DNA from: Candidatus Multivoradales bacterium | GTDB lineage: Bacteria; Acidobacteriota; Thermoanaerobaculia; Multivoradales; J023 | DNA: 64,000 bases | NCBI GenBank assembly: GCA_965248925.1 | Contig: CBDFLE010000005.1 | Span: forward strand, 1,504,001-1,568,000 | Direction of reading: 5' to 3' | In this document: one piece after another, positions 32,701 through 59,800 of the stretch | Layout: each line of letters begins with the position of its first letter | How positions within the stretch are numbered: the stretch's first letter is position 1 | Notes under the pieces: model-generated | Database searches by the model: none | The model's input: the letters and a program-made list of their open reading frames with translations, nothing else | What the model was told of the DNA's origin: nothing | Position numbers and translations under genes: made by a program

Positions 32701-35700
32701 TTAATCGCGGCGCGGAAGGCCGACTCCTGCTGGTACAACCCGGCTCCCATGTCGACGTAGTGATCGCCAAGGCCCGGCAGTAGGAAGGTCACCGGTCGTT
32801 CACTCGCTCGACTGATGCTGGTCAGCAATCGGCGCGGGGAGACCTTAGTCAGTACTTCGCGGGCATCTTCACCACTGCGACAGACCAAGATCTGCCGGTG
32901 CTCCAGGCGTCGCCTGCCAACCTGCAGAGTGAAGGCGACATCGGCCAGAGGGACTTGCGGGGACTTCCCCAAATAACTTGCCAAATTCGCCGTCGCCGCC
33001 GCTAACGCACTCTCGGTCTTGGCTGACAACAGCAGCAGTTGCCAGGGTCGCGAAAGCCCGGCCTCAGCTACCGCTGGCGCCTCCTCAAGCACAAAATGTA
33101 CGTTGGTGCCACCGAGGCCGAGGGCATTGACCGCGGCCCGCCGCGGCTTACCGTTGGAGCACCATTCGCGCCCCTCGGTCTGTACGTAAAAGGGACTGGA
33201 GTCGAAGTCGATCTGCGGATTCGGGCTCTCGAAATGCAGCATCGGTGGCAGCTGCTGGTGATGGAAAGCGCAGGCCATCTTGATCAAGCTGGCGGCTCCC
33301 GAAGCACGATCCATATGGCCGACATTGGTCTTCAGCGAACCAATGCCACAGAACTGGCGTTCGGCGGTCTCACGGCGGTAGGCACGGGTCAAGGCGGTCA
33401 CCTCGATCGGGTCACCGAGCTCGGTGGCAGTTCCGTGAGCCTCGATGTACTCGATCGACTCAGCCGCCACTCCGGCATCCAGCAGCGCGGCGCTCACCGC
33501 TGCCACCTGGCCCTCGACACTCGGCGCGGTGTAACCCACCTTCAGCGACCCGTCGTTGTTCATCGCCGAGCCCTTGATCACGGTGTAGATCGTGTCGCCA
33601 TCAGCAACGGCATCGCCGAGACGCTTGAGGACCAGAATGGCGACACCATTGCTGCTCAGGGCTCCTTTGGCGCGAGCGTCGAAAGTGCGAGTGTGACCGT
33701 CATCAGACTCGATGCCGCCTTCCTGGAAGAGATAGCCCACCGCATGCGGCACCGCTATGCGGGCTCCTCCGGCCAAGGCGATATCGCACTCACCGTCTAG
33801 CAGACTGCGACGGGCCATGTGGGTAGCCACCGCCGAGGTCGAGCAGAAGGTCTGAACGGTCACACTCGGTCCGGTCAGGTTGAGCTTGTACGACACCCGC
33901 GTGGCCAGCGAGTCGTTGGTGTTGCTGATGCCGGCTTGCAAAACCATCGCCGGATTGGTCTCGGCCTGGGCGGAGCGCACCAAGTTGTTAAACAGATAGG
34001 TACTGCTGTTGGTGCCGCCGAACACGCCGATCAAACCGGCATAGCTGCCAGAGTTGTAACCGGCGTGTTCGAGAGCTTCCCAAGAACACTCGAGAAACAG
34101 CCTTTGCTGGGGATCGAGCACGCTGGCTTCCATCGGCGAGAAGCCAAAGAGCTGGGCATCGAACTGATCGATGTCGTCGATTACCGCGCTAGCCCGCACG
34201 TAGTTGGGATCGGCGAGTTCCGCGGCGCTGACTCCAGCCTGCAAAAGCTCTTCTTCGCTGAGTGCCGAGATCGACTCGACCCCCTGCACCAAGTTGCTCC
34301 AGAACTGATCGACATCGGTGGCTCCCGGGAAGCGCCCGGCCATGCCGATGATGGCGACATCATCACGCTCCACCTGCCGGCGGAGGCACTCGCGGCGGCG
34401 GCGCAGCTCACTTTCGGCGGCCGACTCGCTCTCTAACTCCTCCTCTTCGGCATTCAGCAGTCGAGCCAACGAGCGCACGGTGGGAGCCTCGTAGAGCGCC
34501 ACCGGCGACAGCTCGACATCAAGCGCACTTTTGATCTCGTTGACCACTTGCAATCCGATCAACGAGGTGCCGCCCAAGTCAAAGAAGTTGTCGTCGATGC
34601 CAACACTCTCAAGGTTGAGAACTCGCTGCCAGATGTCGCCGATCTCGCGTTCCAGCTCGCTATCGGCGGCAACGTACTCGACACCGAGAACCGGTCGCGA
34701 ATGGCTCGCCACCTGAGACTGCCGCGATTCGGCGATCGCGTCGAACATCTTGTTCACCGAAAAATCCTGGCTGCCTTCGAGCAGAGTCTGGAACTCAAGG
34801 GTCGACACCACCATGCTCGAGAGGTCTCCCGACAAGATACGCTCCACCGCTTCCATGCCCTCGGTGAAGGAGATGCCAAAGCGGCGACGGCTTTCACGGA
34901 AGAACTCCTGCGCTTCCTGGTGGAAGCCCTCGAGTCCCTGCGACCAACTGTCCCACTGCCACTCACCCCAGGCGATCGCGGCCACTCGCCGATGGCGCGA
35001 AGGCAGTAGGGCGTAACTGTCGAGAAAGGCGTTGGCGGCGGCGTAGTCCACTTGCCCAGGGCCACCGCCAGTGATTCCCGAGGTCGAGGAGAAGAGCAGC
35101 AGGAAATCCAACGGCGGGGCGGTGGACAAAGCCTCTTCGAGGGCCAAGACGCCCTGCACTTTGGGGGCCAGAATCTCGGCCGATAATTGCCGGGTTTTCA
35201 GCTGCACGAGACCCTGCGGCGGAACTGCCGCGGTGTGAATAACTCCGTGGATCGCGCCAAAGTGCTCCAGCGCCTCTGCCACCGCCGCGCCGATCGCCCG
35301 CTGATCGGCGACATCGGCGCTCAGCGCCAGGACCTCGGCACCGGCCGCTTCGAGCGCCAGCACTCCGCGCAGCTTGCGCGCCAGGTCGGTGTCGGTATCT
35401 GCCGCGGCCACAAGCAGCGGCCATTCCTCCCGCGGCGGCAGGGTCGAACGTCCGAGCAACACCAAACGGGCACCTACGCTCCTAAAGAGATGCTCGGCAA
35501 GCGCCATGGCGATGCCACCGAGACCGCCGGTGATCAAATAGACACCCTCGCGACGCCAGGAAGGGCAACCATCCGTCGGCACCGCGGTCGACTGCCTCTC
35601 GTACCGTCGCAGCCAGCGCTCGGCCGAGCGTATAGCCACGATCTGGTCGGCGGGCTCGCCTGCCCTGATCTCCGCAGCCAGCAGAGCGGCGAGGGCCGGA

Positions 35701-38700
35701 ACCGCTGGGGCTGCTGGATCGGCGAAATCCGCCAAGGCCACGTCGATCATCCGACAGCTGATGTTCTCGTGCTCCTGGGGAATCACCTTGCACGGCCCCA
35801 TCAACGCTGCCTTGACCGGCTCGACCAAGTCACCTTCCAGCACTCGGAACTGCCGGTTGGAGACCAGCACCAGATCGACGTTCTCAAAACCACCCCGATC
35901 AGCCAACGTCTGGGTTAACAGGATGACGCCATGGAAACCCAAATCGAGGCCCGCTGCGACCTCGGCAACCTCGGCCGGCTGCTGACTTGCCGCCGTAACA
36001 CTCCACAGATGGATAACCCCGCAAGGCACCTGGTGGCCAGTGAGCAGCCGCTCGTAGTCGGCCCGGCGGCCAGGATTGATGGCGTAGGATCCTTCGGCGT
36101 GGCGGATGAAACGATCGCCGGCCGCGACCGTCACCACCTCCTCGCCGACTTCGCGAAGTTGCTCAGCCAGGGCCAATCCCAGACCTTGACCGTCGATCAT
36201 GACCCACCACGGCCGCCCCTCGCCGGACCCCGCGGCGGGCTCAGGAGACGGCAGGGCAAGGCTGTCAACAGCACCAGCGGAGGTCCGCGGCAGGGCTTTC
36301 AGCAGCACCACGGCAGGCACGCTCTGCTCCTCGGACAGCTGCTCGCGGAGGCCGTTTTCGAGGGCACCGACCAAGGTCGCATCCTCCACCTTGGCGACGG
36401 CACGGAGAAAGGCCCGCCGTTGACGATGGCGAATGCTGGGAGCGGGCTCGGGCAGGTCGCGAATGGCGAACAAATTGTAGAGCACCGAGCCTTTGAGCAG
36501 CGGGTCCTGCTCGATAACCACTTGGAATCCACGCTCCTGTAGCAACCGCTCGATCTGTTCCAAGCGACCCTCCAGGTCGTGCACCTCGATGACGATCTGG
36601 CGGATCAATTTCCAATGCTCCTCACGCAAGCCGGCCAGCACCTCGAGCTCTGCTTTCTGCACGTCGATCTTCAGCAGATCAATACAGCCGACCTCGCACT
36701 CGTCGATCACATCCGAGAGCACCCGCAGGCGACATTCGAAAGTCTCACTACGGAAGCGCTCTTCGAGCAGGCCGTCGGCGAAACCCAACAACTCGCCAAC
36801 CCCCTTGATGCCGGCATCGCGCTCGCGCTCCATCATCAACTTGAGAATCTCTTTCTCTTCTTCCTTGTCGGCGTGAAAGGAGGACATTCCCGAACTTTTG
36901 GGATAGAAAGTGAACTCGGCCATCGCCGCACGATCGGCGATGCCAAAATTGAACAATCGGGCATTCACCTGATTGAGAGCGATATTGAGACGCAGCTTGT
37001 CGAACAACGGCGGCGCCGGCTCAAAGGCATAGATCAGAGGGTCTTTGCAGGCTTGGTGGGCAAAGAGGGTGAAGGAACCAATGTTGGCGCCAACATCAAA
37101 CACGCACGCTCCGTCGCGCAGCTCGATGCCATTGCGGCGGTAGATCTCCTTCTCGAAGATATCCTCATAGAAGTGCTCCGCCTCGGTCTGGCCCTGGCAA
37201 ACCACCTCCATGCCGTTGGGCCAGGTCTGCACCCGCTCCCCTTCGACCACGGCAGCAGGTAGTTCGGTCGGTACCACGTAGGCCACCAGACTCTCGCCGG
37301 CGCCGCGAGGCTCGGTGTGAACCTCACGGACGCCTGACTGGGCGAGCAGCAGCGCCGTCACCTGCTGCTCTCGCTCACCGCTCCCGACCACCACCTCGGC
37401 CGAATCGGCGGCGCTGTCCTCGGCCTCTTCGCGATGCCACACCGGGGCGTAGAACCAGTCGTCATAGGCCTCCTTGTGCAGGTCGGCAAGGTGGCGCTCG
37501 ATCACCGAACTCTGTGGCGCGGCCTTGGCGCTGGTCTGGAGCCAATAGCTCTGGCGCTCGAAGGGGTAGCCAGGCAGCGGTATGCGGCCGCGTTGCAAAC
37601 GGTGGGTCGCTGCCCAGTCGACCGCGACACCGGTCATCCACAGCCGACCCATGCTAGCGAGCAAGAAGGCTCGATCCGGCTGCCGGTTGTACAAGGCCCG
37701 CAGGGTCGATGCGGTCCGCGCGCCGCGCGCCGCATCACACTCGGGATGCTGTTTGGCGAAGGAGATTAGGGATTGGCCTGGTCCGACTTCCACCAGTGTC
37801 GAGTCGCTGCTCAGGAGTTGGCCAAGACCGTCGCTGAATCTCACCGTCTCGCAGAGATGGCGGATCCAGTAGCTCGGGTCGACCGCTTCTTCAGGTCGGA
37901 TCCAGGTGCCGGTGACATTCGACACGTAGGGAATCTGTGGCGCGGCGAGTTCGAAACTCTCGATCAGCTCTCGTAACGGCGTGGCGATCGCCGCCATCAT
38001 CGGCGAATGGGCGGCGATCGAACCGGCCAGGCGGCGGTAGACCACCCCCCGCTGCTGCAACTCCACCTCGAGCACCACGACCGCCTCGAGCGGTCCGGAA
38101 ACCACCTGCAAGCTGGGACCGTTGACCACCGCGATGACCAGGTCGTCACCGAGCAGCGGCTCGAGCTCCGCGGCAGGCAAGGGTACGGCGACCATGGCGC
38201 CGGGAGGCAGCTCATCGATCAAACGCGCCCGGCGGCAAACCAGGGTCAGGGCATCTTCCAGGGTGATGACTCCGGCCAGGCAGGCGGCCACGTACTCACC
38301 CAAGCTGTAGCCGAGAAGGGCCTGCGGACGCACCCCCCAGTCGAACAGCAGGTGGGCCATCGCATAGTCGATCACGAACACCATCAAGTGAGCAAAGACG
38401 GTGCTCTGCTGCTGGCCATCGCCAAGGTCCGCGCCCCGCACTCGCAACATATTCCGCATGTCGAGCTTGGTGGAGCGCTCACCCTCGGGCTCACTGTCTT
38501 CAGCAACATCGGAAAAGAGCTGATCGCGCAAGTCAGAGCCGAGTTCGTCGCGGAGCAGCTCGCAACACCTATCGACGGTGCGGCGAAAAGCGGGCTCTTG
38601 GCGATAGAGTCCCAAACCCATGTCCGGGTAGTGATCGCCGACCCCAGGCAATAGAAAGCTCACCTGGCGGTCACGACGAACCTCAGCATGGGTTTCCAGC

Positions 38701-41700
38701 CGGCTGCCATCTGCCAAACCGGCGACGGCATCTTTGAGATCTAGGGCCACTAAGGCTCGGCGGTGCTCAAAAAGGCGGCGGCCGGCTTGCAAGGTGTAGG
38801 CGAGATCACCGAGCTCGACAGTGGGACGGCTTTCCAGGTATTGGCCTAGGTTGCTGGTGGCCTGTTCGAGAGCGGCCGCGGTGCGGGCCGAAAGCACCAA
38901 CAATTGCCACTCTCTCGAGGGGTTCTCGGCCGCTGGCGGCGCCTCCTCAAGAATCATGTGGACGTTGGTGCCACCGACTCCGAGGCTACTCACCCCGGCC
39001 CGTCGTCTGCCCTTCGCCGGTGCCGGCCAAAGCTGCAACTCAGTGCTGATATAGAACGGGCTACCGTCGAGACCGAGTTTTGGATTGGCTTGCTCGAAGT
39101 GCAGGGTCGGCGGTAGGCATTGGTGCTCGAGGGCCAACACCACCTTGATCAAGCTGGCGACTCCGGCGGCCCGATCCAGGTGCCCGACGTTAGCCTTCAC
39201 CGATCCCAAGGCGCAGAAACTCTGGTCGCTGGTGTGCTGGCGAAAAGCTCGGCTGAGGGCGATCACCTCGATCGGATCACCGAGCGGCGTGGCGGTGCCG
39301 TGGGCCTCGACCAACTGCAAGCTGTCCGCGCTGACCGCCGCTTGGTCCAGCGCCCGCTGCACCACCGCGGTCTGAGCATCGACGCTGGGAGCGGTGTAGC
39401 CGATCTTCAGCGAGCCGTCGTTGTTGATCGCCGAGCCCTTGATCACCGCGCGGATGTTGTCGCCGTCGGCGACAGCGTCTTCGAGACGCTTGAGCACCAG
39501 CAGGCCGACCCCTTCGCCGAACACCGTGCCGGTGCCACGGGCATCAAAACAACGGGTGTGGCCATCGTCGGAGACGTACTCCCCCTGGGTGAAGCTGTAG
39601 CCCGTCTTCTGCGGAACGTGCAGCGAAACACCTCCGGCCAGCGCCATATCGGCTTCGCCGTCGAGCAAGGTGCGCACCGCGAGATGGATCGCCACGGCCG
39701 AGGTGGAACAGAAAGTCTGCACCGTGAAACTCGGCCCCGTGAGGTTCAGCTTGTAAGACACCCGGGTGGCCAGCGAATCTCGGTCATTGGCGATCGAGGC
39801 CTCCAAACCCACCATCCAGCGCAGGATCTCCGGATCCTGGAGGTGGCCCATCAAGTAGGTGCTGATATTCGATCCACCAAAGACCGCCACCCGGCCGTCG
39901 CAGCGCAGCGAGTCATAGCCGGCGTTCTCCAGCGCTTGCCAGGAACACTCCAGAAAGAGCCGGTGCTGCGGATCGGTGTAGGTGGCCTCGCGCGGGCTGA
40001 AACCAAAGAACTCAGCGTCGAACAGATCGGAGTCTTCGAGAATCGGCCGTGCAGCGACGTAGTCTTCGCGACCATAGTCGGCCGGGTCGACACCTGCCTC
40101 GGCCAGTTCTTCCTCAGTAAAGTAGGAGACCGACTCCACCCCATCGCGGAGGTTGCGCCAGAACTCCTCGGCGTCGCGAGCGCCGGGAAAACGACAGCTC
40201 AAGCCGATGATGGCGATGGCACCGCTGCCGCCCCCCGGGGGCGTACGAGGACGCGGCGTGGCTTCTTGCAGCGGCTTGCTGGGGCCGGTTTGGGCAGCCA
40301 AGCGTTTGGCCAGCTCGGTGATTGTCGGCGCTTCGAACAGAAACACCGGCGAGAGCTGCACCTCGAGCTCTTTCTGCAGCTCCGAAACCACCTGGATGGC
40401 GGTCAAAGAGGTGCCCCCGAGATCGAAATAGTTGTCGTCGATACCGATCTTGTCAATGCCCAGACTGCGCTGCCAGACCTCGACGATCTTCGCCTCCAGA
40501 TGGTCGCTCGGCGGCATGTAGGCGCTCTGTAGATTGGGGCGCGAATACACCGCCGTCGGGCGATTCGCCGCCGTCGGGTCGGCGCCCCCGCGGCGCTCGA
40601 CCCAGAGTTCGAGGCGAGCCTGTAGGTCGCCGGTAGAATTGACCACTTGGGGTCCCGGTAGAGCGCTGACCAGGCGCTCGAAAGCCGCCACACCTTCACT
40701 CGGCGACATCTCAAACTCGGCGATGGTCTTGCCGATCACCTGATGCTGGGATGGGCTGAGCTGCCAGGTATCCCAAGCGACCGCCAGCCAAGGCGAGAGA
40801 CCTCCACCGCGCTGACGGCTCAGGCAGAAGGAATCCATGAAGGCATTGGCGGCGGCGTAAGCAACTAACCCAAGGCCGCCCAAGACCGTCGACAACGAAG
40901 ACATCAGCAAACAGAAGTCGAGTTCGCGCCCAGCCAAGATCTCATCCAGGACCCGCAGACCGTCGATCTTGGGGCGGAAATGCCATTCCGCTTGCTGACG
41001 CGTGATGTCCTGAATCACCCCAAAGGCCGCCGGGTCGGAAATGCCGGCGGCGTGAATGACCCCATGCAACTCGCCAAACTCATCCAGCAGACGAGCCAGG
41101 ACCTCCTCCATGCCCTGTTTGTCGGCAACGTCGGCGGCAAGCACCAGCACCTTGGCACCGCACTCCTCGAGCCGGCGTACCAGGCGGATCTTCTCGCTCA
41201 GCGCGTTGTCTGCTCCATGTTCGCTGAGATACTCGTCCCAATCCCCAACCGGCGGCAGCACCGAGCGCCCGACCAGCACCAGCCGTGCTTGGTAAGTGCT
41301 GGCCAGATGATCGGCCAGCACTCGGGCGACGCCACCGAGACCGCCGGTGATCAGATAGACCCCATGGTGGCGGAGATTGACCTCGCCAGCAGCCGCGGCC
41401 GGTACTTGGAGAGGAGTAAATTCCAAGCGGAAGCGCTGGCCACCGCGCCAGGCCACCCGCCCCTGGCCAACCGCTCCGGCGGCGGTGACCTCGGCGCAGA
41501 ACTCTTGGAGACGCGGCCCGTCGGCGGCTAGCTCGGCGGCTACCACGTCGATGCTGCGGCAGCGCAGGGTCGGAAATTCCTGCGGGATGATCTGGGTCGG
41601 GCCCAGCAACGTCGCCTTGGCCGGCAGCAGCCGGTCGCTGTCGAAGACCCGGTGCAGCCGATCGGAAATCACCATCATGTCGAGCGAGGTGGTCAAATAG

Positions 41701-44700
41701 TGGCCACCGAAAGTCTGCGCCAGGTGGATCAAGCTGAAATAGCCAAGTTCTTGCAGAGCCTGCGGCTCGACCGGATTGTCGCCGGTGACCGTCCACAGAT
41801 GCAGCAGCCGGCTCGGCAGCTGATCACGCTCTTTCAGTCCGCGGCACAAGCGCTTGTAGTGGTCGCGACGGCCCGGTTGAAGGGTCCAGGCAGCACCGTC
41901 CTGGCCACTGGAAAAATCATCAGCAGCCTCGACCAAGACCACTTCCCGGCCAGACTCCTGCAAGGCGCCGGCAACCCGTCCCCCGATACCGAGCCGATCG
42001 CAAAAGATCAGCCAACGTTCGCCGCGGGCTGGCGCCGAGAACCTGGGCACACTGGCGGCTTGCCATGCGGGCAGATAGAACCAGTCGGCGATCTGCGACT
42101 TCTTGCCCGCGCCGGTGGACGGCGTGACCGCGGCCGTCGCAGCTGGCGGCACCCAATAGCTGACGTTGTCGAAGGCATAGGTCGGCAATGCCAGCCGGCG
42201 GCGGCGCTCGCCGCCGTAGAATTTGACCCAGTCGACTTCGACCCCGGCCAGCCACAACTTGCCCACCGTGGTCAGCAGGAAGGCCGAGTCGTCGAGCTGC
42301 CGCAACAGGCCATGGGAAACGGTGGCCAACACCACCCGCTCGCCGCTCGCCTCACGATCCGGATGCTGCCGCACGAAGGAGCCCAGGGACTGGCCCGGCC
42401 CGACTTCGAGCAGCACCGCGTTGTCCCGCTGAAGGATCTCGTCCAGACCCTGCGCGAATCGCACCGTCTGGCAGAGGTGACGCCCCCAGTAGGCGGGATC
42501 GGTCGCCTCGTCATCGGTAATCCAGGTACCGGTAGCATTGGCAACGTACGGAACCCGCGGCGGCTTGAGTTCGAAGGTTCCGAGCAGTGCCTCGAGTTCT
42601 TTTGCCACCGGCTTCATCATCGACGAATGAACCGCTCGCGAAGTCTGCAACCGGCGGCAGGCGACCTGCCTATTGTTCAGCAGTGACTCCAGGGCGTTGA
42701 TCGCCGATTCGGGACCCGAAACCACCCCCATCGCCGGACCGTTGATCACCGCCAGACTCAATTCGTCACCCAGCAAGGCCTCGATCTCGGCGGTCGGCAG
42801 CGGCAGCGCAAGCATTGCCCCCGGGGGCTGCTCTTCGATCAACTGTGCCCGACGAACGGTCAAGGCGAGGGCATCTCTCAACTCCAGCACGCCGGCGATG
42901 CAGGCGGCGGCGTATTCGCCCAGGCTGTGGCCGATCAACGCCGTCGGCACCAGCCCCCAACTTTCCAACAAACGGGCCAGGGCAATCTCGACGACGATGA
43001 TCGCCGAGTGGGTGAGGGCCATATTGCCGAAGGTCTCTACCGCCGGCTCGGCCGGGCCATCCCCTCCTCTTGCCAACTGGCGAAAGTCCGGCCGAGCCGG
43101 TGCCTCGGCCCCAGCACTAGGGAACAACACCGGGCGCAGATCCTGGCCCAAGAGGGGGAGCAACAGCTCGGCACACTTGTCGACCTGACGCTGAAACACC
43201 GGTTCGCTAGCGTAGAGGCCGGCGGTCATTCCGGGGAATTGATCACCGACGCCGGGGAAGAGAAAGACCACCTCGCGGTCGCGATGCTCTTGGTACGCAG
43301 TCAGCAGCCGACTCGGCTCCGCCCCACCGAGACAGGCCACCGCATCGCCAAGATCCTGGCACACCGCAATCCGCCGGTGGTTGAAGGCACTGCGGCCGAG
43401 GTGCAGGGTGTGGGCGACATCGGCCAGATCGAACTCGGGATGGGCGCTGAGGTGATCGCGCAGCCGCTGACCCGCTGCGGTGAGAGCGGTATCGGTCTTG
43501 CTCGATAGAGCGACCAGCTGCCAGGGTCGTGGTGAAGGGGTCGCGGGGGTGCGCGGCGGCGCCTCCTCCAACACGACGTGAGCGTTGGTCCCCCCCAAGC
43601 CAAAAGAGTTGACCCCCGCCCGGCGCGGCGCACCGGCAGTGGTCCACGGTTTGGTCGTGGTGTTGACATAGAACGGCGAGGCATCCCAGTCGGCGTCCGG
43701 GTTGGGATTCTCGAAATGCAGACTGGGTGGGATCTCGCGATGATTCAATGCCTGCGCTGCGCAGATCAAGCCGGTGACCCCGGAGGCTCGATCCATATGC
43801 CCGATACTGGTCTTGATCGAAGACAGAGCACACTTCTGCCGGCCCTGCACCTCGCCGAAAGCCCGCATCAGGGCTGCGATCTCGATCGAATCTCCCAGCT
43901 GGGTTCCAGTGCCGTGAGCCTCGATGTAGGAAATGGTCGCCGGATCGACCTCGGCATTGGCCAGTGCTTCGGCGATGACCGCGCTCTGGCCGCGCAGGCC
44001 CGGAGCGGTGTAACCCACCCGCTCTATCCCGTCGTTGTTGACCGCCGAACCCTTGATCACGGCGTAGATCGAGTCGCTGTCGGCCAGCGCATCTTCCAAC
44101 CGTTTGAGCATCACGATGCCCAAACCCTGGCCCATGACGCTGCCGTTGGCTTGGGCGTCGAAGGCTCGGCAATGGCCGTCCGGAGAGAGGATGCCTCCCT
44201 CTTGGAAGACATAGCCATGACCTTGGGGAAAGCTGATCGCCACTCCACCGGCCAAGGCCCCGTCGCATTCGCCGATAACCAGGCTCTGACAAGCCAGGTG
44301 CACGGCCACCAAAGAGGTCGAGCAGAAGGTCTGAATCGACAAGCTCGGCCCCTTGAGATCGAGCTTGTAGGACACCGTCGAGGCCAACGAGTCGCGCTCG
44401 TTGCCCACCGCCAGCTGTAAGCCGCCGATCAACTCCATCAACTCGGGATGGGTCGCCAGGTTGTTCTGCACGTAACTTTGAAATCCCGAACCGGCAAAGA
44501 CGCCAATCAATCCAGGGAAAGTCTCGGGACAGAGGGCGGCGTCCTCAAGCGCCTCCACCGCACTTTGCAGGAACAGCCGGTGCTGCGGATCCATTACCTC
44601 CGCTTCGCGCGGGGTGTAGCCAAAGAAGGAAGCATCGAAAAGGTCCGCCTGCTCGACCAAGGTCCCAGCCGCCACGTATTGCGGCTGCCGCATCAACTCC

Positions 44701-44861: not shown

Positions 44862-44883
44862 GCCTCGATCTCCGTGGTTTCGT

Positions 44884-47800: not shown

Positions 47801-50800
47801 AAAGTGGCGGGCTGGGAGAAGCGCAACTCGTTCAGCGGGCCGGCAGCTTCGTCGCGCTCACCACCGCCGCGACCCAACAGGTGGCGCAGACTGGGCGGGC
47901 TCTTGGTGCGTGCCACGGCGTCCGCAGGCATGCCAGAGAACAGCAGCTGCCGCAGGTCGATGCCGTCAAGTTCGTCCTCGAGCAACTCTGCGCAGCGATC
48001 CACTTCTTGCCGAAACACCGCCTCTTGCTGGTAGAGGCCGGCGCTCATATCGAGGTAGTGGTCTCCGGTCGGGAAGAGGAACACTACCCGCGGCGGCATC
48101 TTTCTAGCCCTGCCGCAGGAGACTCCATCGGCATCCGGCGCGGCCAGCTGCGCCACCGCTTCTTCGGCGTCACGGGTCACGGCAAAGCGCCGCTGCTCGA
48201 ACTCACGGCGGCCCATCTGGAGGGTGAAAGCGACATCCGGCAGCGGACTCTTCGCAGTCGAACCCATCGACTCGCGCAACAAGAGCGACGCCAGCGACGA
48301 CGACGCGGTGTCTCGCGCCGCCACCGTGCGGGCCGAAATCGGCAGCAGCTGCCAGGCCCGCGAAACACCACTCGGCTGGCGCTGGGGCGCCTCTTCAAGC
48401 ACCACATGGACATTGGTACCGCCAACCCCGAGGGAGTTGACACCGGCGCGACGTGGCCGGCCATTGCTCTTCCATTCGAGCCGTTTGTTGTTAACAAAGA
48501 ACGGGCTCGCCGCGAGTTCGATCTTGGGATTGGGCTCTTCGAAGTGAAGGGTAGGCGGCAGGACTTCTTCGCGCAGCGCCAAGACCGTCTTGATCAAACC
48601 AGCGACACCGGCCGCCCGGTCGAGATGGCCAAAATTGCTTTTTACCGAGCCGATGGCGCAGAACCCGCATGCCTCGGTGCCGAGACGGAAAGCCTTGGTC
48701 AGGGCCGCCGCTTCCACCGGATCACCGAGGTCGGTCGCCGAGCCGTGGGCCTCGACATAGCCAATGCTCTCGGCCCTAACCCCGGCATGGTCGAGAGCCA
48801 TGGCGATCGCCTCCGCCTGCCCTTCGATACTCGGAGCGGTGTAGCCGATCTTCAACGAGCCATCGTTGTTGATCGCCGAACCCTTGATCACCGCGTGGAT
48901 GGTGTCTCGGTCGGCCAATGCATCAGCCAGCCGCTTCATCACCACCACACCGACGCCGTCGCCAAAGACCGTCCCCTGTGCTTTAGCGTCGAAGGAACGG
49001 GTGTGGCCGTCCGGCGAGTCCTGGCCACCGGGATCGAAGCGATAGCCCACCTTCTGCGGCACGCGGATCGAAACCCCACCGGCCAGGGCGATGTCGCTCT
49101 CGCCGGTGAGTAGACTTTGGGCGCCCAGGTGAGTCGCCACCAAGGAGGTCGAGCAAAAGGTCTGCACCGCCATGCTCGGTCCCCTGAGGTTGAGTTTGTA
49201 GGACACGCGGGTGGTCAGCGAGTCACGATCGTTGGTGATCGCCGTCTCTAACTCGCTGACCGAATCCATAAACTCGGGCGACCCCAACATGCCGAGCAAG
49301 TAGGTGCTGATATTCGAGCCAGCGAAGAGGCTGATCGCCCCAGCGTAGCGCTGGGCGTCGTAACCAGCATGCTCCAGAGCTGTCCAGGCGGTCTCCAAGA
49401 AGACCCGATGTTGAGGATCCATCAACTCGGCTTCGCGAGGGCTGAAACCAAAGAAGGCGCTGTCGAAGAGTTCCACCCCGTCGAGCACCGGCCGCACGCG
49501 GACGTAGTTAGGGTCCTTGAACTCCTCCTCCGGCACCCCGGCAGCCAGCAACTCCTCGTCGCTGAAGATGGAGAGGGTCTCGACCCCTGCCTCGAGATTG
49601 CTCCAGAATTCCTCGACATCCCTGGCGCCGGGAAAACGCCCTGCCATGCCGATGATGGCGATCTCCTGCCGGCCGTCTGTCGACGGCCTCTGGCGGCGAC
49701 GCTCGACCGCCGCCGCTAGCGCCGCGGTGGGCTGCTCGGCAGTCTGCGGCAGCAGTCGCTTGGCGAGCTCGCTGACACTTGGCGCGGCAAAGAGGAGATT
49801 CGGCGAGATCTGGCCACCGAACTCTTCCTGCAACGCCACCGTCACCTGGATAGCGGTCAATGAGGTGCCGCCGAGATCGAAGTAGTTGTCGTGCAGGCCA
49901 ACTTCCTCGACACCCAGGATCCGTTGGAAGATCTCCGCGATACGACGCTCGCCGAAACTTTGCGCCGCCACAAAGGGGGTCTGCAAATTGGGTCGGGCGT
50001 AGAGTGACGGGGACACGGTCTCGACCACCGCCCGGTGCTCGATCCACTGCTCCAGCCGGGTACCGAGATCGCTCGGGGAGTGCACCAGATGCGTCGCCGA
50101 GGAGGCCAGTACTCGACGGAAAGCCTCGATCCCCTGCTCCGCCGTCATCCCTCTGCCTTCTTCGCTCAACATCATTCGGAACTCGCCCAAGTCCGCCTCC
50201 GAACCGTGTTCGCGGAGTTCCCGCAGCTCGTCCCCGTGAACCTCCCAGATATCCCAATTGACGGTGGTCCAACGCCCCGGCGAGCGCCGATTGCGCTGCT
50301 CGGCGAAGGCGTCCATGAAGAGGTTGGCGGAGGCGTAAGCGCCCATGGTCAAGCCGCCGAGAACCGCTGAAGTCGACGAGAACAAGAGACGGAAATCGAG
50401 TTTGCGATCCGCCAGCACTTGCTCCAGCACCCAGAGTCCCTGCACCTTGGGACGAAAATGCGCTACACACTTCTCGCGGCTGATCTCGGCCAGCAAGCCA
50501 AAGGCTTCGGGCCGCACCAGTCCGGCGGCGTGGAGCAAACCATCGATCGTACCGAAGCGCTCCTCCGCCTGCTCGACTACCTGCTGCATGCGCTCCGGGT
50601 CGGCGACATCGGCCGCCAGCACCAACACTTCGGCACCGAGTTCTTCGAGACGCTGGAGTCGGCGGATCTTGTGCGCCAATTCATCGGCTATCCCAGCGTT
50701 GTCGACATACTCAGCCCAACTGTCTCTCGCAGGAAGCTCCGAACGGCCGGTCAAAATCAGCTTGGCGTCGAGTTCACGAGCGAGGTATTCGGCCAAGACG

Positions 50801-53800
50801 AAGCCGATGCCGCCGAGCCCACCGGTGATCAGGTAGACACCCTCTCGGCGCAGCTTGTCGAGGCCCTCGGGCGAGGCCAGCGGCGCCGACTCGAAGTCTT
50901 GCACCCAGCGACCGCTCGCGCGCAAAGCGACCATCCGATCCGGCAGATCCGCGGCCAGCTCGTCTCGCAGCCGCTCGCTGAGTGACTCGGCTTCGGTTAC
51001 TGAGTCCGTCACTTCGAGATCGATGACTCGACAGGCGACCTGGGGATATTCCTGGGGAATGACTTTGCAAGGCCCCAAAAGGGTCGCTTTCTCGGGCCAG
51101 AGCTTCTCCGTTCCGGCAACTGACCACAGACCATTTGCCACCACATCGATCGCCCAGGGCCGGGTCGCAGCGACTTCGCAAAAGGCCCGCACCAAGTGGA
51201 TCAGGCTGTAGAAGCCGCGCTCCTGAGTCTCTTCGAAGGGGCTCGACCGCACCGCCTCGGAGCCGCTTAAGCTCCACAGATCCACCACCCTCGAAGGTAG
51301 TCTGTCCTCGTTATGCAAGGTCTTTAGCAGATCCTGATACTGATCAGCCTGCCCCGGGTCGAGGACGAATTCGCTCGCGCTCTGGCGCTCGAAAGCGGCA
51401 CCCGCGACCACCGTCGTGACCCTGTGGCCCGCGCTCGTCAAGCGCTCGGCCAAGCACCTGCCCACGCTCAGAGCATCGGCCAGCAGCAGCCAGCTGGTCG
51501 CTGCCGCCGGCTCCTCGCCGCTGTTTGAGGGGTCACTCGGCGACAAATCCGTGGGCCGCCAAATCGGTCGGTAGAACCACTCCTCCGGATCTCCCTTGAC
51601 CTCGACCGCAGCCGTCCGCAGCCGCCCCTGCTCGGGGCCAATCCAGAAACGCTGGTCGGCGAACGGGTAGGTCGGCAGCGGCACCCGGCGCCGCTTCTCA
51701 TAGCGGTAGAAGGCCGTCCAGTCGATCCGCACACCGGCTAGCCAGAGCTTGCCCAGAGTGCGCAGCAGAAGATCTTGGTCCGGCTGGCGCAGGAAGGCCG
51801 CCGGCAGGGTAGCGAGCACCGGCTGGGCGGTCTGCGGGCTGTAGGCGGGATGCTGCTTGACCATGGACCCCAGGGACTGGCCGGGCCCCACTTCGACCAA
51901 CACTCGATCGCCGCCGTCGATCAACTTCTGCAAGCAGTCGTGAAAAAGCACCGGCCGGCACAGATGATGTGCCCAATACGCCGGATCCATAGCTTCTTCA
52001 TCAAGGATCCAACGGCCGGTGACATTCGAGACGAAGGGAATGCGCGGTCGCCGCAGCTCGGTCTTTTCGAGCAAGCGGGTGAAGGGCTCGACAATCGGCT
52101 CCATCATGTACGAGTGGAAAGCGTGCGACGTGGCCAGCCGCCGGCAAGCCACTTCCTTCGCCGTCAAGTGCTCCGCCAGCGCCGCGATGGCGGCCTCGGA
52201 CCCGGCCAGCACCGACATTGCCGGCCCATTGACCGCCGCCAACGACAGCTCGGAGCCGAGCAGGGGCTCGACCTCGCGCCGCGACAAAGGCACTGCCAAC
52301 ATCCCCCCCGGCGGTAGCTGATCGATCATTTGCGCCCGCAAGGTCACCAGCTCTAAAGCCGCGTCCAGGCTCAGCACGCCGGACAGGCAGGCCGCGGTGT
52401 ACTCGCCAAGGCTGTAGCCAGCCATCGCTTGCGGCTCACCGACCCATTCGATCAACAACTGTGCGAGGGAGTATTCGACGGCGAAGATCGCCGGATGCAC
52501 GTTGGCGGTGCGATTGAGGAGGCGGCTGGCGTCATCGCTCGGCACGCCGCCCCGGAGCAGGCTGCGCAGATCCGGCTTGGCAGCCTCGCCGCCGCCTTGC
52601 TGCGCCGCCGGAAAAAGGAGTTCGAGCAGCCCGTGGTCAAGCCACGGCACCAGCTTCTCAGCACAGAGATCCAAATGGCGGCGAAAGGTGGGCTCAGAAT
52701 CGTAAAGCCCCTGGGCCATGCCGACGTACTGATCACCCAGCCCCGGAAAAAGGAAAGCTACAGATCTGTTCGTTGACTGGTCGAAATAGCTGAACAGGCG
52801 CTGCGGGTCGCGCTGCGCCAACGCCGAGCCGAGATCCTCGACACTCTTGCCCACCAGCACCCGCCGGTGCGGCAGCAATCGGCGGCCGCGCTGCAGGGTG
52901 TGGGTGAAATCGGCCACCTCGGCCTCGGGATGCTGCTGCAGATGCTCGGCCAGGCGATCGGTCAACTGCTCCAGAGCCGCCTCCGTTTTAGCCGACAACA
53001 CCACCAGCTGGGCAGCCCGAGATGGGCTGGCCGGAGCCGCCGGAGGCGCTTCTTCGAGCACAAAGTGGACATTGGTGCCGCCGATACCGAGGGCGTTGAC
53101 CCCGGCCCGGCGCGGCGCCTCGCCGGCAGGCCAGGGAGTGAGTTCCGTGTTGACACAAAAAGGACTCTCGGCGAGGCGAGTCTCCGGATTGGGGCGCTTG
53201 AAGTGCAGGCTGGCTGGTATCTGGCTGTGGTGAAGGGCCAGCGCGGTTTTGATCAGGCTGGTCGCCCCGGCGGCGCGATCCAGGTGCCCCATGTTGGTCT
53301 TCACTGAACCCAGGGCGCAGGAGAATTCTCTGCCCACGTCGGCGAAGGCTTTGGACAAAGCGGCGACCTCGATCGGATCGCCGAGTTCGGTGCCGGTGCC
53401 GTGGGCTTCGACATAGCTCAGCGTCGCCGGCTCGACGCCGGCCTCCACCATCGCCGCCGCGATGACCTGCGCCTGGGTGTCGACGCTCGGCGCCGTATAG
53501 CCGACCTTCAGCGAACCGTCGTTGTTCATCGCCGTGCCCCTGATGACGGCGTAGATCTGATCGCCATCGGCTTGCGCTTCGTCCAACCGCTTGAGCACCA
53601 GCAACGCCACCGCGTTGCCCACCACCGCCCCCTGCCCCGCCGCATCGAAAGCTCGGGTGTGGCCGTCGGGCGAATCGATGCTGCCTGTCTGCCACTGATA
53701 GCCAACGCGATGGGGCACGGCAATCCGCACGCCGCCCGCCAGCGCGAGGTCACAGTCGCCACGGGCCAGACTGCGACAGGCCAGGTGATTGGCCACCGCC

Positions 53801-56800
53801 GAGGTCGAGCAGAAGGTCTGCACCGCGATACTGGGCCCGGTAAGACCGAGCTTGTAGGACACTTTGGTGGTCAGAGAATCGGCAGAGTTGACGATTCCAG
53901 CCTGCATTGGATCGACTGCGGCGGCGGTCTGCGGATCACTGATGATTTGATTGAGCAGGTAGGTGCTTATATTTGAGCCGCCGAAGACGCCGATCGCTCC
54001 ACCGTACTGCTGCGAATCGTAGCCAGCATTCTCCAGCGCTTCCCAAGCAGCTTCGAGAAAGAAGCGATGCTGCGGATCCATCAACTCCGCCTCCCGCGGC
54101 GAGTAGCCGAACAGCTCGGCGTCGAAGCGGTCGATGTCCTCCAGCACTGCACCGGCCTTGACGTAAGTCGGATCCCGTAACAAGGCCTCTTCGACGCCAG
54201 CGGCCCGTAGCTCTTCGTCGCTGAAGAAAGTCACCGACTCGACCCCCTGCTGCAAGTTGCGCCACAGCTCGGTCGTGTTGCGGGCTCCGGGGAAGCGTCC
54301 TGCCATGCCAATGATAGCAATGTGAGACTCAACTTCCGGCCCGGTTGCCCGCCGTCTGCGGACGGCCAGCCGGGGCTTTGCTCCGCCTGCCGCCACCGCA
54401 GCGGGAGCCAGGGCTCGGGCCAGGGTCGATGCCGTCGGCGCTTCATAGAGTAGAGTTGCCGGCACGTCGCGACCGACGACCTGCTTGAGTTCAGCGGTGA
54501 CCTGCAAACCGAGCAGAGAATTGCCGCCGAGATCGAAGAAGTTGTCGTCGACGCCAACTTGCTCGACCCCGAGCAGGCGCTGCAAGATCTCAGCGACCCG
54601 CCGCTCGAGTTCCTCGACCGACAAATCCGGGGGTGGAGTGTCGCCAGTTCTGGCCGGCGCCGCGACCACGCCGAAACCGCGCAAGAGGTTGTCCAGGGTG
54701 AACTTGCGACCGAGTTCGAAGAGGGTCGGCAGGCGCCGTGGGGTGACGACGATCCTTGCCTCCGCCTGCGCCAAAGCGCGCTCGAAAGCACGGCCCCCGC
54801 GGTCGAAATCGATCCCGAAGCGCTGCCGGCTAGCGGCAAAGAAATTGCGCATCTGCGGCGCAAAGTCGGTCAACCCTTCCTGCCATGCATCCCACTGCCA
54901 CTCATTCCAATCGATGGCGATAGTGCGCTGGCCACGGGCTGAGCGCTGCGCCGCGAAAGCATCGAGGAAAGCATTGGCGGCGCAGTAATCGACCTGTCCA
55001 GGACCACCGCCGGTGAGCGCCACCACCGAGGAGAAGAGAGCCATGAAGTCGAGCTGATGGTCAGCGAAGACCCGGTCGAGCACCCAGGAGCCCTGGATTT
55101 TCGGCGCCAGCACCTGAGCAGCCATTTCCCGGGTCTTGAGCTGCGCTAGTCCAGCGCCGGGTACCCCGGCGGCATGCACCACCCCATCGATCTTGCCGAA
55201 ATGCTCCAGCGCCTGCTCGACGGCCCGGCGCAGCTCTACTTCCACCGTGACATCGGCGACCAGCACCAGAACTTCGGCACCGAGATCTTCGAGTTCTTGC
55301 AGCCTTTCGAGGCGATCCGCCACCTGGCCCGGCCGCGTGCGGCTAACCAAGACCAACTTGGCTGCGAAGTGCCGGACCAGATGCTCAGCAAGTCCGAGAC
55401 CGAGGCCACCGAGGCCGCCGGTGATCAGATAGACCCCGCCTTGACGCAGCGGCGTCACCACCTCCTCAGGCGCTGGTAGCGGGACGAAAGTCTCCACCCA
55501 GCGCTCTCCTTGCCGGTAGGCCGCCACCGTATGCCCACCCTGCTCGGCGGTTTCCAGGGGCTCGGCCATGAGCTCGTCGAGCAAAGCTCGCAACTCACCA
55601 GACTGACTCCAGCTCGCCTCGCCGGCAGCACCATGCAGGTCGAGATCGAGGCTGCGGCAGCGCAGCAGCGGGAGTTCCAGAGGCGCCACCCGGCAAGGAC
55701 CGAGAAGGGTGGCACTTTGCGGGTGCAGTACTTCCTCGCCGGTGATCCGATGGATGCCGCTCGACACCACGGTGAGTTCGATCTCAGTCGCATCGCGGAG
55801 TTCACCGAGTCCCTGAATGCACGCCAGCAGGCTATAAAAGCCATACTCCAGCTGGTCCACCAGACAATCTTCCGGGATGCTGTTCGCGACCTCTTCGACC
55901 GCCAAGCTCCACAGATGTACGATCCGCCGCGGCGCGGCGTCGAGGTCGGCTAGGAGCTGGCGGAAATCTTCCAGCTCAGCGGGGCGTAGAGTCCACGAGC
56001 GATCGTTATGGCGGACGAACTCTGCGCCCACCTCGACCACCCACACCACTTGGCCAAGCTGTTCGAGACGCGCCGCCAGGGCGGCGCCGAGGCCGCCACT
56101 GTCGACCAGCAAGAGCCACGGATCGGCTTTGTCCGACAGCGGGTCAGCAGCCAACAGAGGCAGCGGCTGAGGGCGCCACTGGGGGCTGTAGAGCCAATCG
56201 TCGAAGGCTGCCGGCGCCTCAGCCAGATAGACCTTGAGTTCAGCTGGCACGTCTGGCGCGCTCGGCCCCGCCGAGGATTCCACCCAATAAGATTGGCGTT
56301 CGAAGGGATAGGTCGGTAAGGCTAGACGACGGCGTTGTTGAGCGGCGAAGAACGCGGCGCCGTCGATGTCCACCCCGCGCAGCCAGAGTTCACCGACGGT
56401 GCGCAGCAGGCGAGCTATCTCGTCGAGCTGCTCGCCGCTGCCGGTCGTGGACTCGAAACCCAGCACGGCGAGATTGCATTCGGCCGTCGCCGACAAATCA
56501 GACCCGCCATCGAGTTGCTGTCCGACGCCGATTTCGAGCAGCAGCCGATAGCGGTCGTCCGCCTCCTGCTCAGTAGCGTCAGGGCAGTCCAGCGGCCGAC
56601 TCATCCAGCGGCGCCAATAGGCAGGGTCAGTGACCTCCTGCGCGCTAAGTCTGATGCCACTAGGCGACAGAAGAGGGATCGCTGGAGCCCCCAGACTCTC
56701 CGTCAACGACTCCCCTGGGGCAACCCCATTGGGCGTCACAGAGGCCACCTGCGCCAACTCACGAGCCCGCCGACCCACCAGATCCGCCGCGTCCCCGAGG

Positions 56801-59800
56801 CTCAGAACCCCAGCCAGGCAAGCAGCCGCCGCCTCGCCAAGACCCTGCCCCTGGAGGGCCGACGGACGGATTCCCCAGCTCAGCAATTGGCGCCCTAGGG
56901 CGAGCTGGTTGGCGAACAGCAGTGCCGCAGCCAACCAAGGTGGAGCCGATTCCAGCTCGCGGTCGGGCCCGAGTTCAAAGCCAAAACGCTCAGCACACTG
57001 GTCGACAACCTCGCGGTAGACCTTCTCTCGCCGGTAGCACTCCTCGCCCCAGAGATCCGCCCCAGCTGTCAGATCGGTGAACTGAAAGGTGACGCTGGCG
57101 GGAGCTTCGTCATGATGCCGTGAGCGTATCTGCTCAGAATCGCCTCGGCGCAAGGAGCTAACTGCCTGGCCGGCTTGGTCAGCGACCACTAGCCGGCGAT
57201 GTTCCATAGCCCGCCGGCCCAACATCAGCGTGTAGGCCACATCGGCTAGGCTGCTAGACGGATTCTCCTCAAGATACCCACACAAGTTGTCGCACACCGT
57301 GGCGAGCGCGGAATCGGTACGCGCCGAGACCAGCAACAGTTGCCACTGGCGAGCCGGCCCGGAAGGCGCCTCGGAAGGTGCCTCTTCCAGCACCACATGG
57401 ACGTTGGTGCCACCCATTCCGAGCGAGTTGACCCCAGCCCGGCGCGGCCCACTGACGCTCTCCCATTCCGTCAACTCGCTGACCACGAAGAAAGGTGAAG
57501 CCGACAAGTGGAGCTTCGGATTCGGCCGTTCAAAGTGCAGGGTCGCCGGGATCCGGCGATGGCGCAGAGCCAGCGCGGTCTTGATCAAACCGGTCACACC
57601 GGAAGCCTTGTCGAGATGGCCAAGATTGCTCTTGGCCGAGCCGATGCCGCAGAAGCCTAGTCGCTTGGTGGTCTGGCGGAAGGCCTTGGTCAAGGCAGCG
57701 AACTCGATCGGATCCCCCAGCGGCGTCGCCGTGCCGTGAGCTTCGACGTAGCTCACCGATTCCGCTTCGACCCCAGCCTCGGCAAGGGCCGCAGCCACCA
57801 CCGCGGCTTGACCGTCGACGCTGGGAGCGTGAAAACCAACTTTGAGCGAACCGTCGTTATTGATCGCCGAGCCCTTGATCACCGCGTAAATCTGGTTGCC
57901 GTCACGCCGCGCGTCACTGAGCCGCTTGAGAGCTACCACAGCGACGCCATCACCCAGCGGCGTACCCCGGGCGGCGGCGTCGAAGCTGCGGGTGTGCCCA
58001 TCGGCGGAATCGGTGCCTCCCTCTTGGTAGAGATAACCGACCCGCACCGGCACGCGGATGGCGGAACCGCCGGCCAGAACCAGATCGCTATCACCGCTCA
58101 GCAGACTCTGCCGCGCCATGTGAACCGCCACCAAAGATGTCGAGCAATGAGTTTGGACGCTGACCGCCGGCCCCCTGAGGTCGAGTTTGTAGGCGGTCCG
58201 GGTCGATAGCGAATCTTTGTCGTTGCTGATCACGGTGCTCAACACCGTCGCCATATCCGCCATCTCGGGATCGGCCAGCTGGCTCAGCCAATAGGTGCTG
58301 ATATTGGTGCCTGCGAACACCCCGATCGCGCCGCCAAACTGCTCCGGATCCTGACCCGCGTCCTCCAGGGCTTCCCAGGAACACTCCAGAAACAGCCGCT
58401 GCTGCGGATCGGTCAACCTCGCTTCACTCGGAGTGAAATCAAAGAACGAGGCATCAAAGAGGTCTACATCGTCGAGCACCGGACGCGATTTGACGTAGTT
58501 GTCTTGGGCGATCAGTTCCGGGGCTACGCCGGCAGCCAGCAACTCGGGGTCACTAAAGGTGGAGATCCCTTCCCTCCCCTCGACCAACAGCTGCCACAAC
58601 TGCTGACTGCTCCGGGCGCCGGGAAAGCGACCGGCCATGCCGACAATCGCGATGTCTTCGTGCTGATATCCACCGCGATGGACACCGTCGACATCCTGGG
58701 TCGGCGCCTCTCGTGGCTCGGAACCGCGGCTCAAGACCTGGGCCAAGGTAGCGACCGTCGGCGCTTCATAGAGGCTGACCTCGTCGATCTTCAGACCAAG
58801 GGTCGAGGCCAACTCCAGGGTCAGTTGCTGACCGATTAACGAGTTGCCTCCAAGGTCGAAGAAATTGTCGTTGCGCCCTACTCGGTCCAGCCCTAGCCCG
58901 CGGCGCCAGATCTCACTGATCTGCTGCTCCAGCTCGCTGGCCGGCGGCACATGCCGGGTGCTCAATTCCGGCCGCGGGTGAATACCGGCGGCAAGGCCCG
59001 GTGAGCTTACCGGCTCTGCAGTCAGGCCAAAGAGGTTGGCGGCGGTCGCTCGGCGGCTGTCACGCTGCACGATGGCGAAAGCTCGCGGAGAGACAATCAG
59101 CTGCGGTTCTGGCTGCCCCAAGCACCAAACCAGCGCCCGCATCCCCTGCTCGAAGTCCACCCCATAGCGTGCCCGGCAGGTCTTCAGATAGGTCTGGAAC
59201 TCGGGCCGGAAACCAGCCAATGACTGGTCCCAGAGTCCCCACTGCCACCAGCCCCAGTTGATCGAGAGGACCCGTCCGGGAAGATCAGAGTTGACCGCCA
59301 TGGCGTCGAGAAAGGCATTGGCCGCGCAGTAGTCCAGCTGGCCGATGCCACCACCGGTGACGGCGATAACCGACGAAAACAGGACTACGAAATCCAGTTC
59401 TAAGCTAGCCAGCACTTCTTCCAGCACCCGCGTACCCTGAACCTTGGCCGCCAGCGCTCGCGCCACCATCTGTCGAGTCTTGAATCGCACCAGGCCAGCA
59501 CCGGGAATCCCCGCCGCATGGAACACACCATCGATGCCACCGAAACGTTCTGTAGCCTGCTGGATCGCGCGACCCATGGCCAGCGAATCGGCAACGTCAG
59601 CCTGCAAGATCAGAACTTCGGAGCCCAACTTCTCGATCGCCAAGATCTTGCGAATCCGCTCCTCGGGGCCATCCGCGGCAGCAGCCTCTCGTTCGACAAC
59701 TTCCTGCCAAGTGTCACGTTGCGGCAATGCGGAACGCCCCAGCAGCACGATTCTGGCGGCACAGCTGCGCGCCAACTCCTCGGCCAAACCCAGGCCAACC

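Follow-up and report, generated by a model that had tools for sequence, protein, structure and literature searches.

We analysed a 64,000-nucleotide stretch of contig CBDFLE010000005.1 (positions 1,504,001 to 1,568,000) of a Candidatus Multivoradales bacterium, hereafter called the window, in which genes for a fatty acyl-AMP ligase (FAAL), two polyketide synthases (PKS 1 and PKS 2) and a nonribosomal peptide synthetase (NRPS) form one minus-strand operon. Six of the seven ketosynthase (KS) domains encoded there carry an unusual active-site signature, which is the subject of this report. The FAAL gene, predicted to prime the assembly line, reaches into the window with its 3' part (63359 to 64000, minus strand; PF23024 match); the whole gene runs past the window and encodes 628 amino acids with an AMP-binding and a DIP2-like C-terminal domain, as read from the open reading frame in the flank. 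According to translation, Pfam and our own hidden Markov models (HMMs), PKS 1 (44884 to 63366, minus strand; 6160 amino acids) has the layout ACP-KS1-AT0-KR-ACP-KS2-AT0-KR-ACP-KS3-AT-KR-ACP-KS4-AT-KR-ACP, where ACP is acyl carrier protein, AT acyltransferase, AT0 an AT remnant and KR ketoreductase. PKS 2 (29739 to 45008, minus strand; 5089 amino acids) reads KS5-AT-KR-ACP-KS6-AT-MT-KR-ACP-KS7-AT-KR-ACP, its methyltransferase (MT) being of the FkbM type. The NRPS (9355 to 29742, minus strand; 6795 amino acids) has a TubC-type docking domain, six adenylation (A) domains and a thioesterase. All seven PKS modules are built as KS-AT-KR-ACP, and Pfam and our domain models found a dehydratase (DH) in none of them.

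KS coordinates are HMM envelopes on the minus strand, and motifs were taken from translation and a motif scan. KS1 (61678 to 63003), which would take the FAAL-loaded starter, is canonical, with DTACSSS (62470 to 62496), GHLEAAAG (61936 to 61959) and SSFGFGGTN. KS2 (57352 to 58671) has a His/Lys variant of the signature, namely QTHCSTS (58135 to 58161) and GHLDKASG (57598 to 57621), with NSLGMGGTN. The Phe/Arg form occurs in KS3 (53020 to 54339; QTFCSTS at 53800 to 53826, GHLDRAAG at 53266 to 53289, NALGIGGTN), in KS4 (48361 to 49680; QTFCSTS at 49144 to 49170, GHLDRAAG at 48607 to 48630, NSLGVGGTN) and in KS5 at the N terminus of PKS 2 (43533 to 44852; QTFCSTS at 44313 to 44339, GHMDRASG at 43779 to 43802), which keeps NSFGLGGTN. 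KS6, the domain that was modelled (38916 to 40235; QTFCSTS at 39699 to 39725, GHLDRAAG at 39162 to 39185, SSLGVGGTN), and KS7 (33051 to 34376; QTFCSTS at 33834 to 33860, GHMDRASG at 33297 to 33320, NALGLGGTN) complete the set.

The Cys-His-His triad is intact in all seven KSs, with the first catalytic His lying within E[AT]HG[TS][GA]T (EAHGSAT in KS4), and the KS N- and C-terminal domains PF00109 and PF02801 were matched in four protein pieces with E values from 1e-67 to 1e-187. KS2 to KS7 are not of the canonical cis-AT type, the set DTACSSS/GHxEAAAG/SSFG being complete in KS1 alone; they share the N-terminal motif W.N...G.E....F..EEL..AGV...YV, which KS1 lacks. An earlier reading of this DNA from its letters alone (the sequence-only reading) had described these KS motifs, the intact triads and the hybrid-like N termini, and each was recovered where it had been placed; its range of 33075 to 58655 agrees with the span from the end of KS7 to the start of KS2. 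A degenerate DNA pattern for QT[FYHL]CxTxxVAxH found exactly six sites in the 7.98-Mb genome, which are KS2 to KS7, and a reversed control pattern found none in the same six contigs, so that the motif is not a product of chance.

A search with KS6 against long and short proteins yielded 240 proteins with 828 full KS domains after removal of window duplicates. Phe, Tyr or His before the catalytic Cys was paired with Arg or Lys after GHxD in 151 of the 165 KSs that have one of these three residues: Phe with Arg in 121, Tyr with Arg in 29 and His with Lys in one, which is KS2 of the window. Fourteen KSs had Phe or Tyr without the basic residue, four had Arg without Phe, Tyr or His, and 659 had neither. 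The possibility, raised by the sequence-only reading, that the motif is widespread in ordinary cis-AT KSs was looked at; the motif was absent from those 659 KSs outside the signature classes, and the ordinary KSs of the sample had neither signature residue in any instance. In a larger set of 896 sequences, Arg was retained in 213 of 236 KSs with Phe, Tyr or His, across six phyla, and KS2 stood as the sole His/Lys pair both among the 828 KSs and beside the 213 Phe/Arg KSs of that set.

Six KSs from Nostoc (L026, L028, L052, L071, L075 and L080) have QTYCSTS but Thr or Ile in place of Arg (GHLDTAAG, GHLDIAAG); as a minor offshoot of the lineage, they demonstrate that the pairing can be uncoupled. 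The last KS of P0004 to P0007, P0014, P0132 and P0135 belongs to the same lineage and has Ser for the catalytic Cys (QTFSSTS, QSYSSSS), and the Asp-Arg after the second His is lost there (GHLLIAAG, GHLVIAAG). Such terminal KSs, which have no counterpart in the window, are likely to be non-condensing and to have a different role. P0008_6041 keeps the Cys yet has lost the Arg; the Arg-less forms read GHLLIAAG, GHLVIAAG and GHLDIAAG.

Phylogenetic analysis placed the signature KSs together. In a FastTree tree of the first 608 KSs, all 83 KSs with Phe, Tyr or His formed one clade without an intruder (Shimodaira-Hasegawa-like [SH] support, 0.972). When the two motif blocks were removed from the 896-KS alignment, 222 of the 236 such KSs, including all six of the window, fell inside one clade of 228 (SH, 0.80); an AT-less branch of 11 KSs with QTFCSSS/GHLDRAAG and three strays were located outside it on weakly supported backbones. 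A free IQ-TREE quick search on a 79-row subsample without signature columns divided the lineage into four groups, and constraining it to one clade raised the log-likelihood by 49.5 over that search (approximately unbiased [AU] test, p 0.855). The constrained tree was thus the best one found, and a single origin is not rejected. On sequence evidence, the signature marks a genuine and widespread KS lineage, defined by a bulky and a basic residue as the sequence-only reading had proposed. With profile A1, pattern-matched QTFCSTS members scored 676 to 733 bits, sister KSs and some N-terminal signature KSs about 570 to 612 and ordinary KSs of the same genomes at most 540. As a separator of the lineage the A1 bit score fails, since some N-terminal members score about 500 to 610, like the sisters.

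In neither tree does a window KS group with its neighbours; each clusters with KSs from other organisms, which indicates that the duplications are old. A recent duplication within the cluster, which had been suggested as the source of the six domains, is ruled out by these trees, KS2 to KS7 being closer to KSs of other phyla. KS5 lies in a subclade made mostly of KSs that start a polypeptide, KS3 and KS7 lie in a subclade X, and KS4 and KS6 lie in a subclade Y.

Module context was assigned with HMMs built from the AT, KR, ACP, peptidyl carrier protein, A and condensation (C) domains of the window and an ad hoc DH model. Each of KS2 to KS7 follows a KR-containing, DH-free module by Pfam and by our HMMs. 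The description of the upstream modules as KR-only thus holds as to the KR and the missing DH, and needs qualification for the AT remnants of modules 1 and 2 and the MT of module 6. Among 151 signature KSs, 36 start a protein and 115 have a readable upstream context; 110 of the latter follow a KR-containing module without DH, and our HMMs placed none of the 115 after a DH module and none after an NRPS C-A module, in keeping with the claim that these are KSs without an upstream NRPS. DH domains were found in 0 of 89 member-bearing proteins versus 98 of 151 other proteins, in agreement with precomputed Pfam lists.

The same context was found in four further assembly lines, annotated with gene order across operons assumed, of which three are mixed in that they also have DH modules. 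In Nonomuraea endophytica, DTACSSS/GH[AT]QAAAG KSs follow three DH-KR modules, and the four KSs after KR-only modules have the signature. The same switch occurs in Amycolatopsis vancoresmycina and on contig 27 of Streptomyces radicis, where KSs after DH-KR modules have DTACSS[ST] and those after KR-only modules the signature. On contig 1 of S. radicis, a KS-AT-KR-ACP module with a DTACSSS KS comes after an adenylation-domain gene and before a QTFCSTS/GHLDRAAG KS. The lineage is nearly always found directly after hydroxyl-leaving, that is KR-only and polyol-forming, modules.

The most discriminating alignment column after the two defining ones was the Phe of the SSFGxGGTN loop, a third change that the sequence-only reading had missed. 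This Phe is present in 503 of 552 ordinary KSs, in 88 of 93 sister KSs and in 33 of 36 lineage members that start a protein; among the 115 internal members it is present in none (98 Leu, 8 Val, 5 Gln, 2 Met, 1 Trp and 1 gap). The window obeys this rule, with Leu in KS2, KS3, KS4, KS6 and KS7 and Phe in KS5. An equation of the loop Phe with the "gating" Phe of fatty acid synthases (FAS) was dropped; the alignment with a FabF-like KS (L138), for which we take the FAS gating-Phe numbering to apply, puts the loop Phe two residues ahead of the gating position (SFGFGG).

The KRs of the window fall into two families, type a (GGGxGQxDY; KR1, KR2, KR4 and KR6) and type b (LGGLxxxxYAAAN; KR3, KR5 and KR7). 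They occupy residues 1174 to 1435, 2639 to 2885, 4171 to 4440 and 5757 to 6016 of PKS 1 (P0001) and 1211 to 1468, 3150 to 3412 and 4706 to 4963 of PKS 2 (P0002). Across the internal lineage clade, all 26 classified KSs of subclade X (n = 38; SH, 0.96) come after a type-a KR, and all 50 classified KSs of the two Y subclades (n = 35 and n = 79) after a type-b KR. In the window, KS3 follows a type-a KR, as does KS7, whose upstream KR belongs to the MT-bearing module, and KS4 and KS6 follow type-b KRs. Overall, KS subclade and upstream KR family agreed in 76 of the 77 cases classified; the sole exception is KS2 of the window, whose incoming chain is the first 3-hydroxy fatty acyl chain and not a polyol. 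The order of KR types along the line is a, a, b, a, b, a, b, and suggests a patterned hydroxyl configuration in the predicted polyol; the classical LDD motif was found in neither window KR family.

The signature lineage is related to the hybrid-type KSs. Its sisters in the trees have QTACSTS/GHLD[ATS]AAG and include true post-NRPS members, three of which (P0075_1748, P0100_1099 and P0059_1118) are each preceded by a C-A-carrier module. Unlike hybrid-type post-NRPS KSs, KS2 to KS7 follow KR-only PKS modules with no NRPS module directly upstream. The QTACSTS superclade also contains KSs after KS-AT-ACP (18) and KS-AT-KR-ACP (7) modules, and as post-PKS-module KSs are thus part of it, the lack of an upstream NRPS is not a contradiction. 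Among solved structures, the closest are OzmN KS2 (4WKY), OzmQ KS1 (4OQJ), ClbC and ClbI, with TM scores of 0.92 to 0.95 and 47 to 54% identity, so that the hybrid-type assignment made from the N termini agrees with sequence, tree and fold. OzmN KS2 has 53% identity to KS6 (Foldseek; TM score, 0.94), and ClbK is more distant (TM score, 0.89; 40% identity). The 4WKY protein shares the N-terminal FW..L..G.E.I..FSDEEL..AGV, the Gln-Thr before and the Ser-Thr-Ser after the Cys, and GHLD past the second His, but its Cys is preceded by Ala (QTACSTS), its GHLD is followed by Ala (GHLDAAAG) and its loop is intact (SSFGIGGTN).

Ordinary cis-AT KSs (DTACSSS/GH[LT][EQ]AAAG/SSFG), the type of KS1, have the same triad and module layout; KS2 to KS7 differ from them at the three signature positions and in the N-terminal region, except that KS5 keeps the loop Phe. 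Substrate-type KS clades of trans-AT PKSs were reportedly described by Nguyen et al. in 2008. The signature lineage resembles such clades, in which clade predicts the β-carbon processing of the upstream module. In contrast to trans-AT PKSs, five of the seven modules of the window have their own AT. Nor is the lineage among the trans-AT types with Met before the Cys (DTMCSSS), which were without the Arg in 139 of 139 cases in the sample. That KS clades track upstream processing is a known general principle, and the available portion of PMC10661043 states that KSs co-evolve more strongly with upstream domains, which the KS/KR tracking found here fits. As in the exchange-unit view of cis-AT PKS modules, the KS subclades follow the upstream KR family; that work, however, concerns ordinary actinomycete cis-AT PKSs, and the available portion does not name an active-site signature (PMC10661043). 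No description of the signature was found by a literature search that included full-text motif strings, a weak negative, as motifs usually stand in figures. The available portions of PMC7327777 and PMC13347036 do not address the role of the residue before the Cys, and literature searches for a product linked no compound to related clusters.

The DNA pattern was also scanned against one representative genome per species for 185,579 species. At least 128 stretches matched, and among the matches listed all 128 encode KS domains, as would be expected of the mining marker that the sequence-only reading had envisaged. Among these are matches in Acidobacteriota, Chloroflexota (including Herpetosiphon aurantiacus DSM 785), many Actinomycetota, Cyanobacteriota (Nostoc) and Desulfobacterales, with Gammaproteobacteria represented by Rhodanobacter and Idiomarina. 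Arg was present in 67 of 76 full-length KSs among the matches listed, and the six Nostoc KSs with QTYCSTS had Thr or Ile. Of 401 genomes sampled from the window's phylum, 3 had the pattern, the window's own included; it was found in 0 of 17 same-order and 0 of 21 same-class genomes sampled. This patchy distribution suggests that the lineage spread horizontally.

An AlphaFold2 model of KS6 (mean predicted local distance difference test, 94) has the thiolase-type KS fold. In it, Phe175-Cys176 lie at the start of one helix and Asp354-Arg355 at the start of the one that follows His352. In proteins of the thiolase fold, the active site is enclosed by these helix starts and the SSxG loop. The three changed residues are therefore likely to lie close to one another and to C2-C3 of the bound chain.

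Building on the observed motifs, lineage, spread, module context and KS/KR co-variation, we propose with moderate confidence that KS2 to KS7 are elongating KSs of an old, horizontally spread, hybrid-derived lineage of 1,3-polyol modules that has been remodelled beside the catalytic center. The lineage would have arisen within the hybrid-type (QTACSTS/GHLDAAAG) superclade and then radiated in PKS-only settings. Its remodelling appears to have been coupled, with Phe or Tyr (once His) gained before the Cys, Arg (once Lys) gained three residues after the second catalytic His and, in KSs inside a polypeptide, the loop Phe of SSFGxGGTN lost, usually to Leu. The lineage and the upstream KR-ACP also appear to be passed on together as a single evolutionary unit. 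In the window, the FAAL would load a fatty acid, the canonical KS1 would perform the first extension, KS2 to KS7 would each take over a 3-hydroxyacyl (polyol) chain made by a KR-only module, and the polyol chain would pass on to the six-module NRPS. The three residues, which would lie together in the first or second shell of the active site, may tune the acceptance of such 3-hydroxyacyl chains. In a more specific form, which we consider doubtful as a joint claim, the three changes would amount to a rewired gate that lets only fully ketoreduced chains in: the Phe before the Cys would stand in for the lost loop Phe in packing or gating, the Arg would form a hydrogen bond with the 3-hydroxyl as the chain enters, and the subclades would correspond to the hydroxyl configurations that the two upstream KR families produce. 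If this were true, the KS would be a built-in proofreader for the faithful synthesis of long 1,3-polyols.

Several points weigh against the proposed remodelling for polyol chains. The protein sample was picked by likeness to KS6 and is therefore not a neutral KS sample, and the ad hoc AT, KR, ACP and DH models, seeded from the window and by regular expressions, may miss divergent domains. By our HMMs, 5 of 115 signature KSs have no KR upstream, the seven QTACSTS sisters that follow KS-AT-KR-ACP modules do so without Phe/Arg, and eight KSs classed as "other" (of neither the QTACSTS nor the Met type) come after KS-KR-ACP modules. Ordinary cis-AT KSs accept β-hydroxy chains as well. Free trees break the lineage into three to four groups with weak backbones, and the spatial contact of the three residues is read from the fold. 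Moreover, a single origin makes the link with KR-only modules effectively one evolutionary event, which descent alone could produce.

It is accordingly possible, though we regard it as unlikely, that the signature is a lineage marker alone, a set of mutually compensating ancestral changes (Phe for Ala before the Cys, Leu for Phe in the loop, Arg for Ala) inherited with KR-only modules and without effect on substrate choice. The single origin that the AU test did not reject agrees with this, as do the wholly DH-free member proteins, in which context and descent are confounded, and the sister and ordinary KSs that process β-hydroxy chains without the signature residues; the gain of one Phe and the loss of another also resemble a volume swap. 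Retention of the Arg across six phyla argues against neutrality, however, as does the persistence of the KR-only context after recombination into mixed lines. The Arg is lost in the Cys-to-Ser terminal KSs and in P0008_6041, where the Cys is kept, a hint that it serves catalysis rather than folding. The bulky and basic residues may, as the sequence-only reading put it, adapt the KS to hydroxylated intermediates; with a single origin, adaptation and descent are inseparable.

An improbable alternative is that the changes suit a protein partner or the mode of chain arrival rather than chain chemistry. The loop Phe is kept in 33 of 36 polypeptide-starting KSs, which face a docking interface, and lost in 115 of 115 internal KSs, and the N-terminal KSs form their own subclade, both of which would agree with a partner effect. 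By motif positions and secondary structure, however, the three positions appear to flank the catalytic Cys and His rather than the surface, and the Phe/Tyr and Arg are common to internal and N-terminal members. Very improbable is a local duplication with adaptation to α-heteroatom intermediates derived from hydroxymalonyl or aminomalonyl units, toward which the odd AT motifs of modules 4 to 6, the FkbM-type MT of module 6 and a 3-hydroxyacyl-CoA dehydrogenase gene next to the FAAL gene might point: genes of the FkbH, FkbI and FkbJ types were not found from coordinate 1 of the window to 19 kb past its upper end, the nearest relatives of each window KS are in other organisms and not among its neighbours, the signature recurs across many assembly lines that share nothing but the KR-only upstream module, and one odd or methylated position cannot explain a signature common to hundreds of KSs.

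KS gatekeeping is one of the main obstacles to PKS engineering, and there are few sequence rules from which the substrates of a cis-AT KS can be predicted. The lineage gives a simple three-residue marker that, among the matches listed, flagged KSs alone and is strongly tied to KR-only (polyol-forming) upstream modules, including those of mixed assembly lines. It also provides a natural set of variants (Phe/Tyr/His, Arg/Lys, loop Phe/Leu and Arg-less Cys-to-Ser forms) for tests of residue and selectivity, and it marks an uncharacterized family of FAAL-primed polyol lipopeptide clusters. Cultured carriers include H. aurantiacus DSM 785, Idiomarina xiamenensis 10-D-4, N. endophytica DSM 45385 and S. 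radicis.

The remaining domains of the PKSs have further peculiarities. In the AT remnant of module 1 (61051 to 61338, minus strand), identified by a partial AT match and its sequence, GHSxG is replaced by GVGVG, and in that of module 2 (56485 to 56952, minus strand; Pfam, our HMMs and sequence) by GQGLGE, so that neither has an active-site serine; the ATs of modules 3 to 7 have G[HY]S[LM]GE. A search of the window and of the 19 kb past its upper end found no gene for a free-standing AT, and modules 1 and 2 must thus depend on another AT for loading. In relatives, P0004 for example, an AT is entirely missing from the first module. The FkbM-type MT domain of module 6 (PF05050 by Pfam; 36522 to 37097, minus strand) lies between AT and KR. 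Malonyl ATs have HAFH at a motif that in modules 4 to 6 reads HLIH, RAVH and IAAH, and one methylated or odd chain position is possible from this MT and these ATs.

The 3-hydroxyacyl-CoA dehydrogenase gene adjoining the FAAL gene (L144, 3231 to 4097, plus strand) is located just past the upper end of the window. Beyond it is a two-component system, and the cluster border probably lies here. HtpG, also encoded in the flank, has its closest matches among Acidobacteriota proteins, with at most 73% identity. After the NRPS gene there are genes for an ABC transporter, an APH-type kinase and a MacB/FtsX permease. Within the NRPS gene, modules repeat with a period of about 3180 nucleotides (window positions 13871 to 23716), and copies 6363 nucleotides apart are 99 to 100% identical over the 300-nucleotide stretches compared. 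These repeats would represent a very recent module duplication or gene conversion or, possibly, a collapse or expansion in the assembly.

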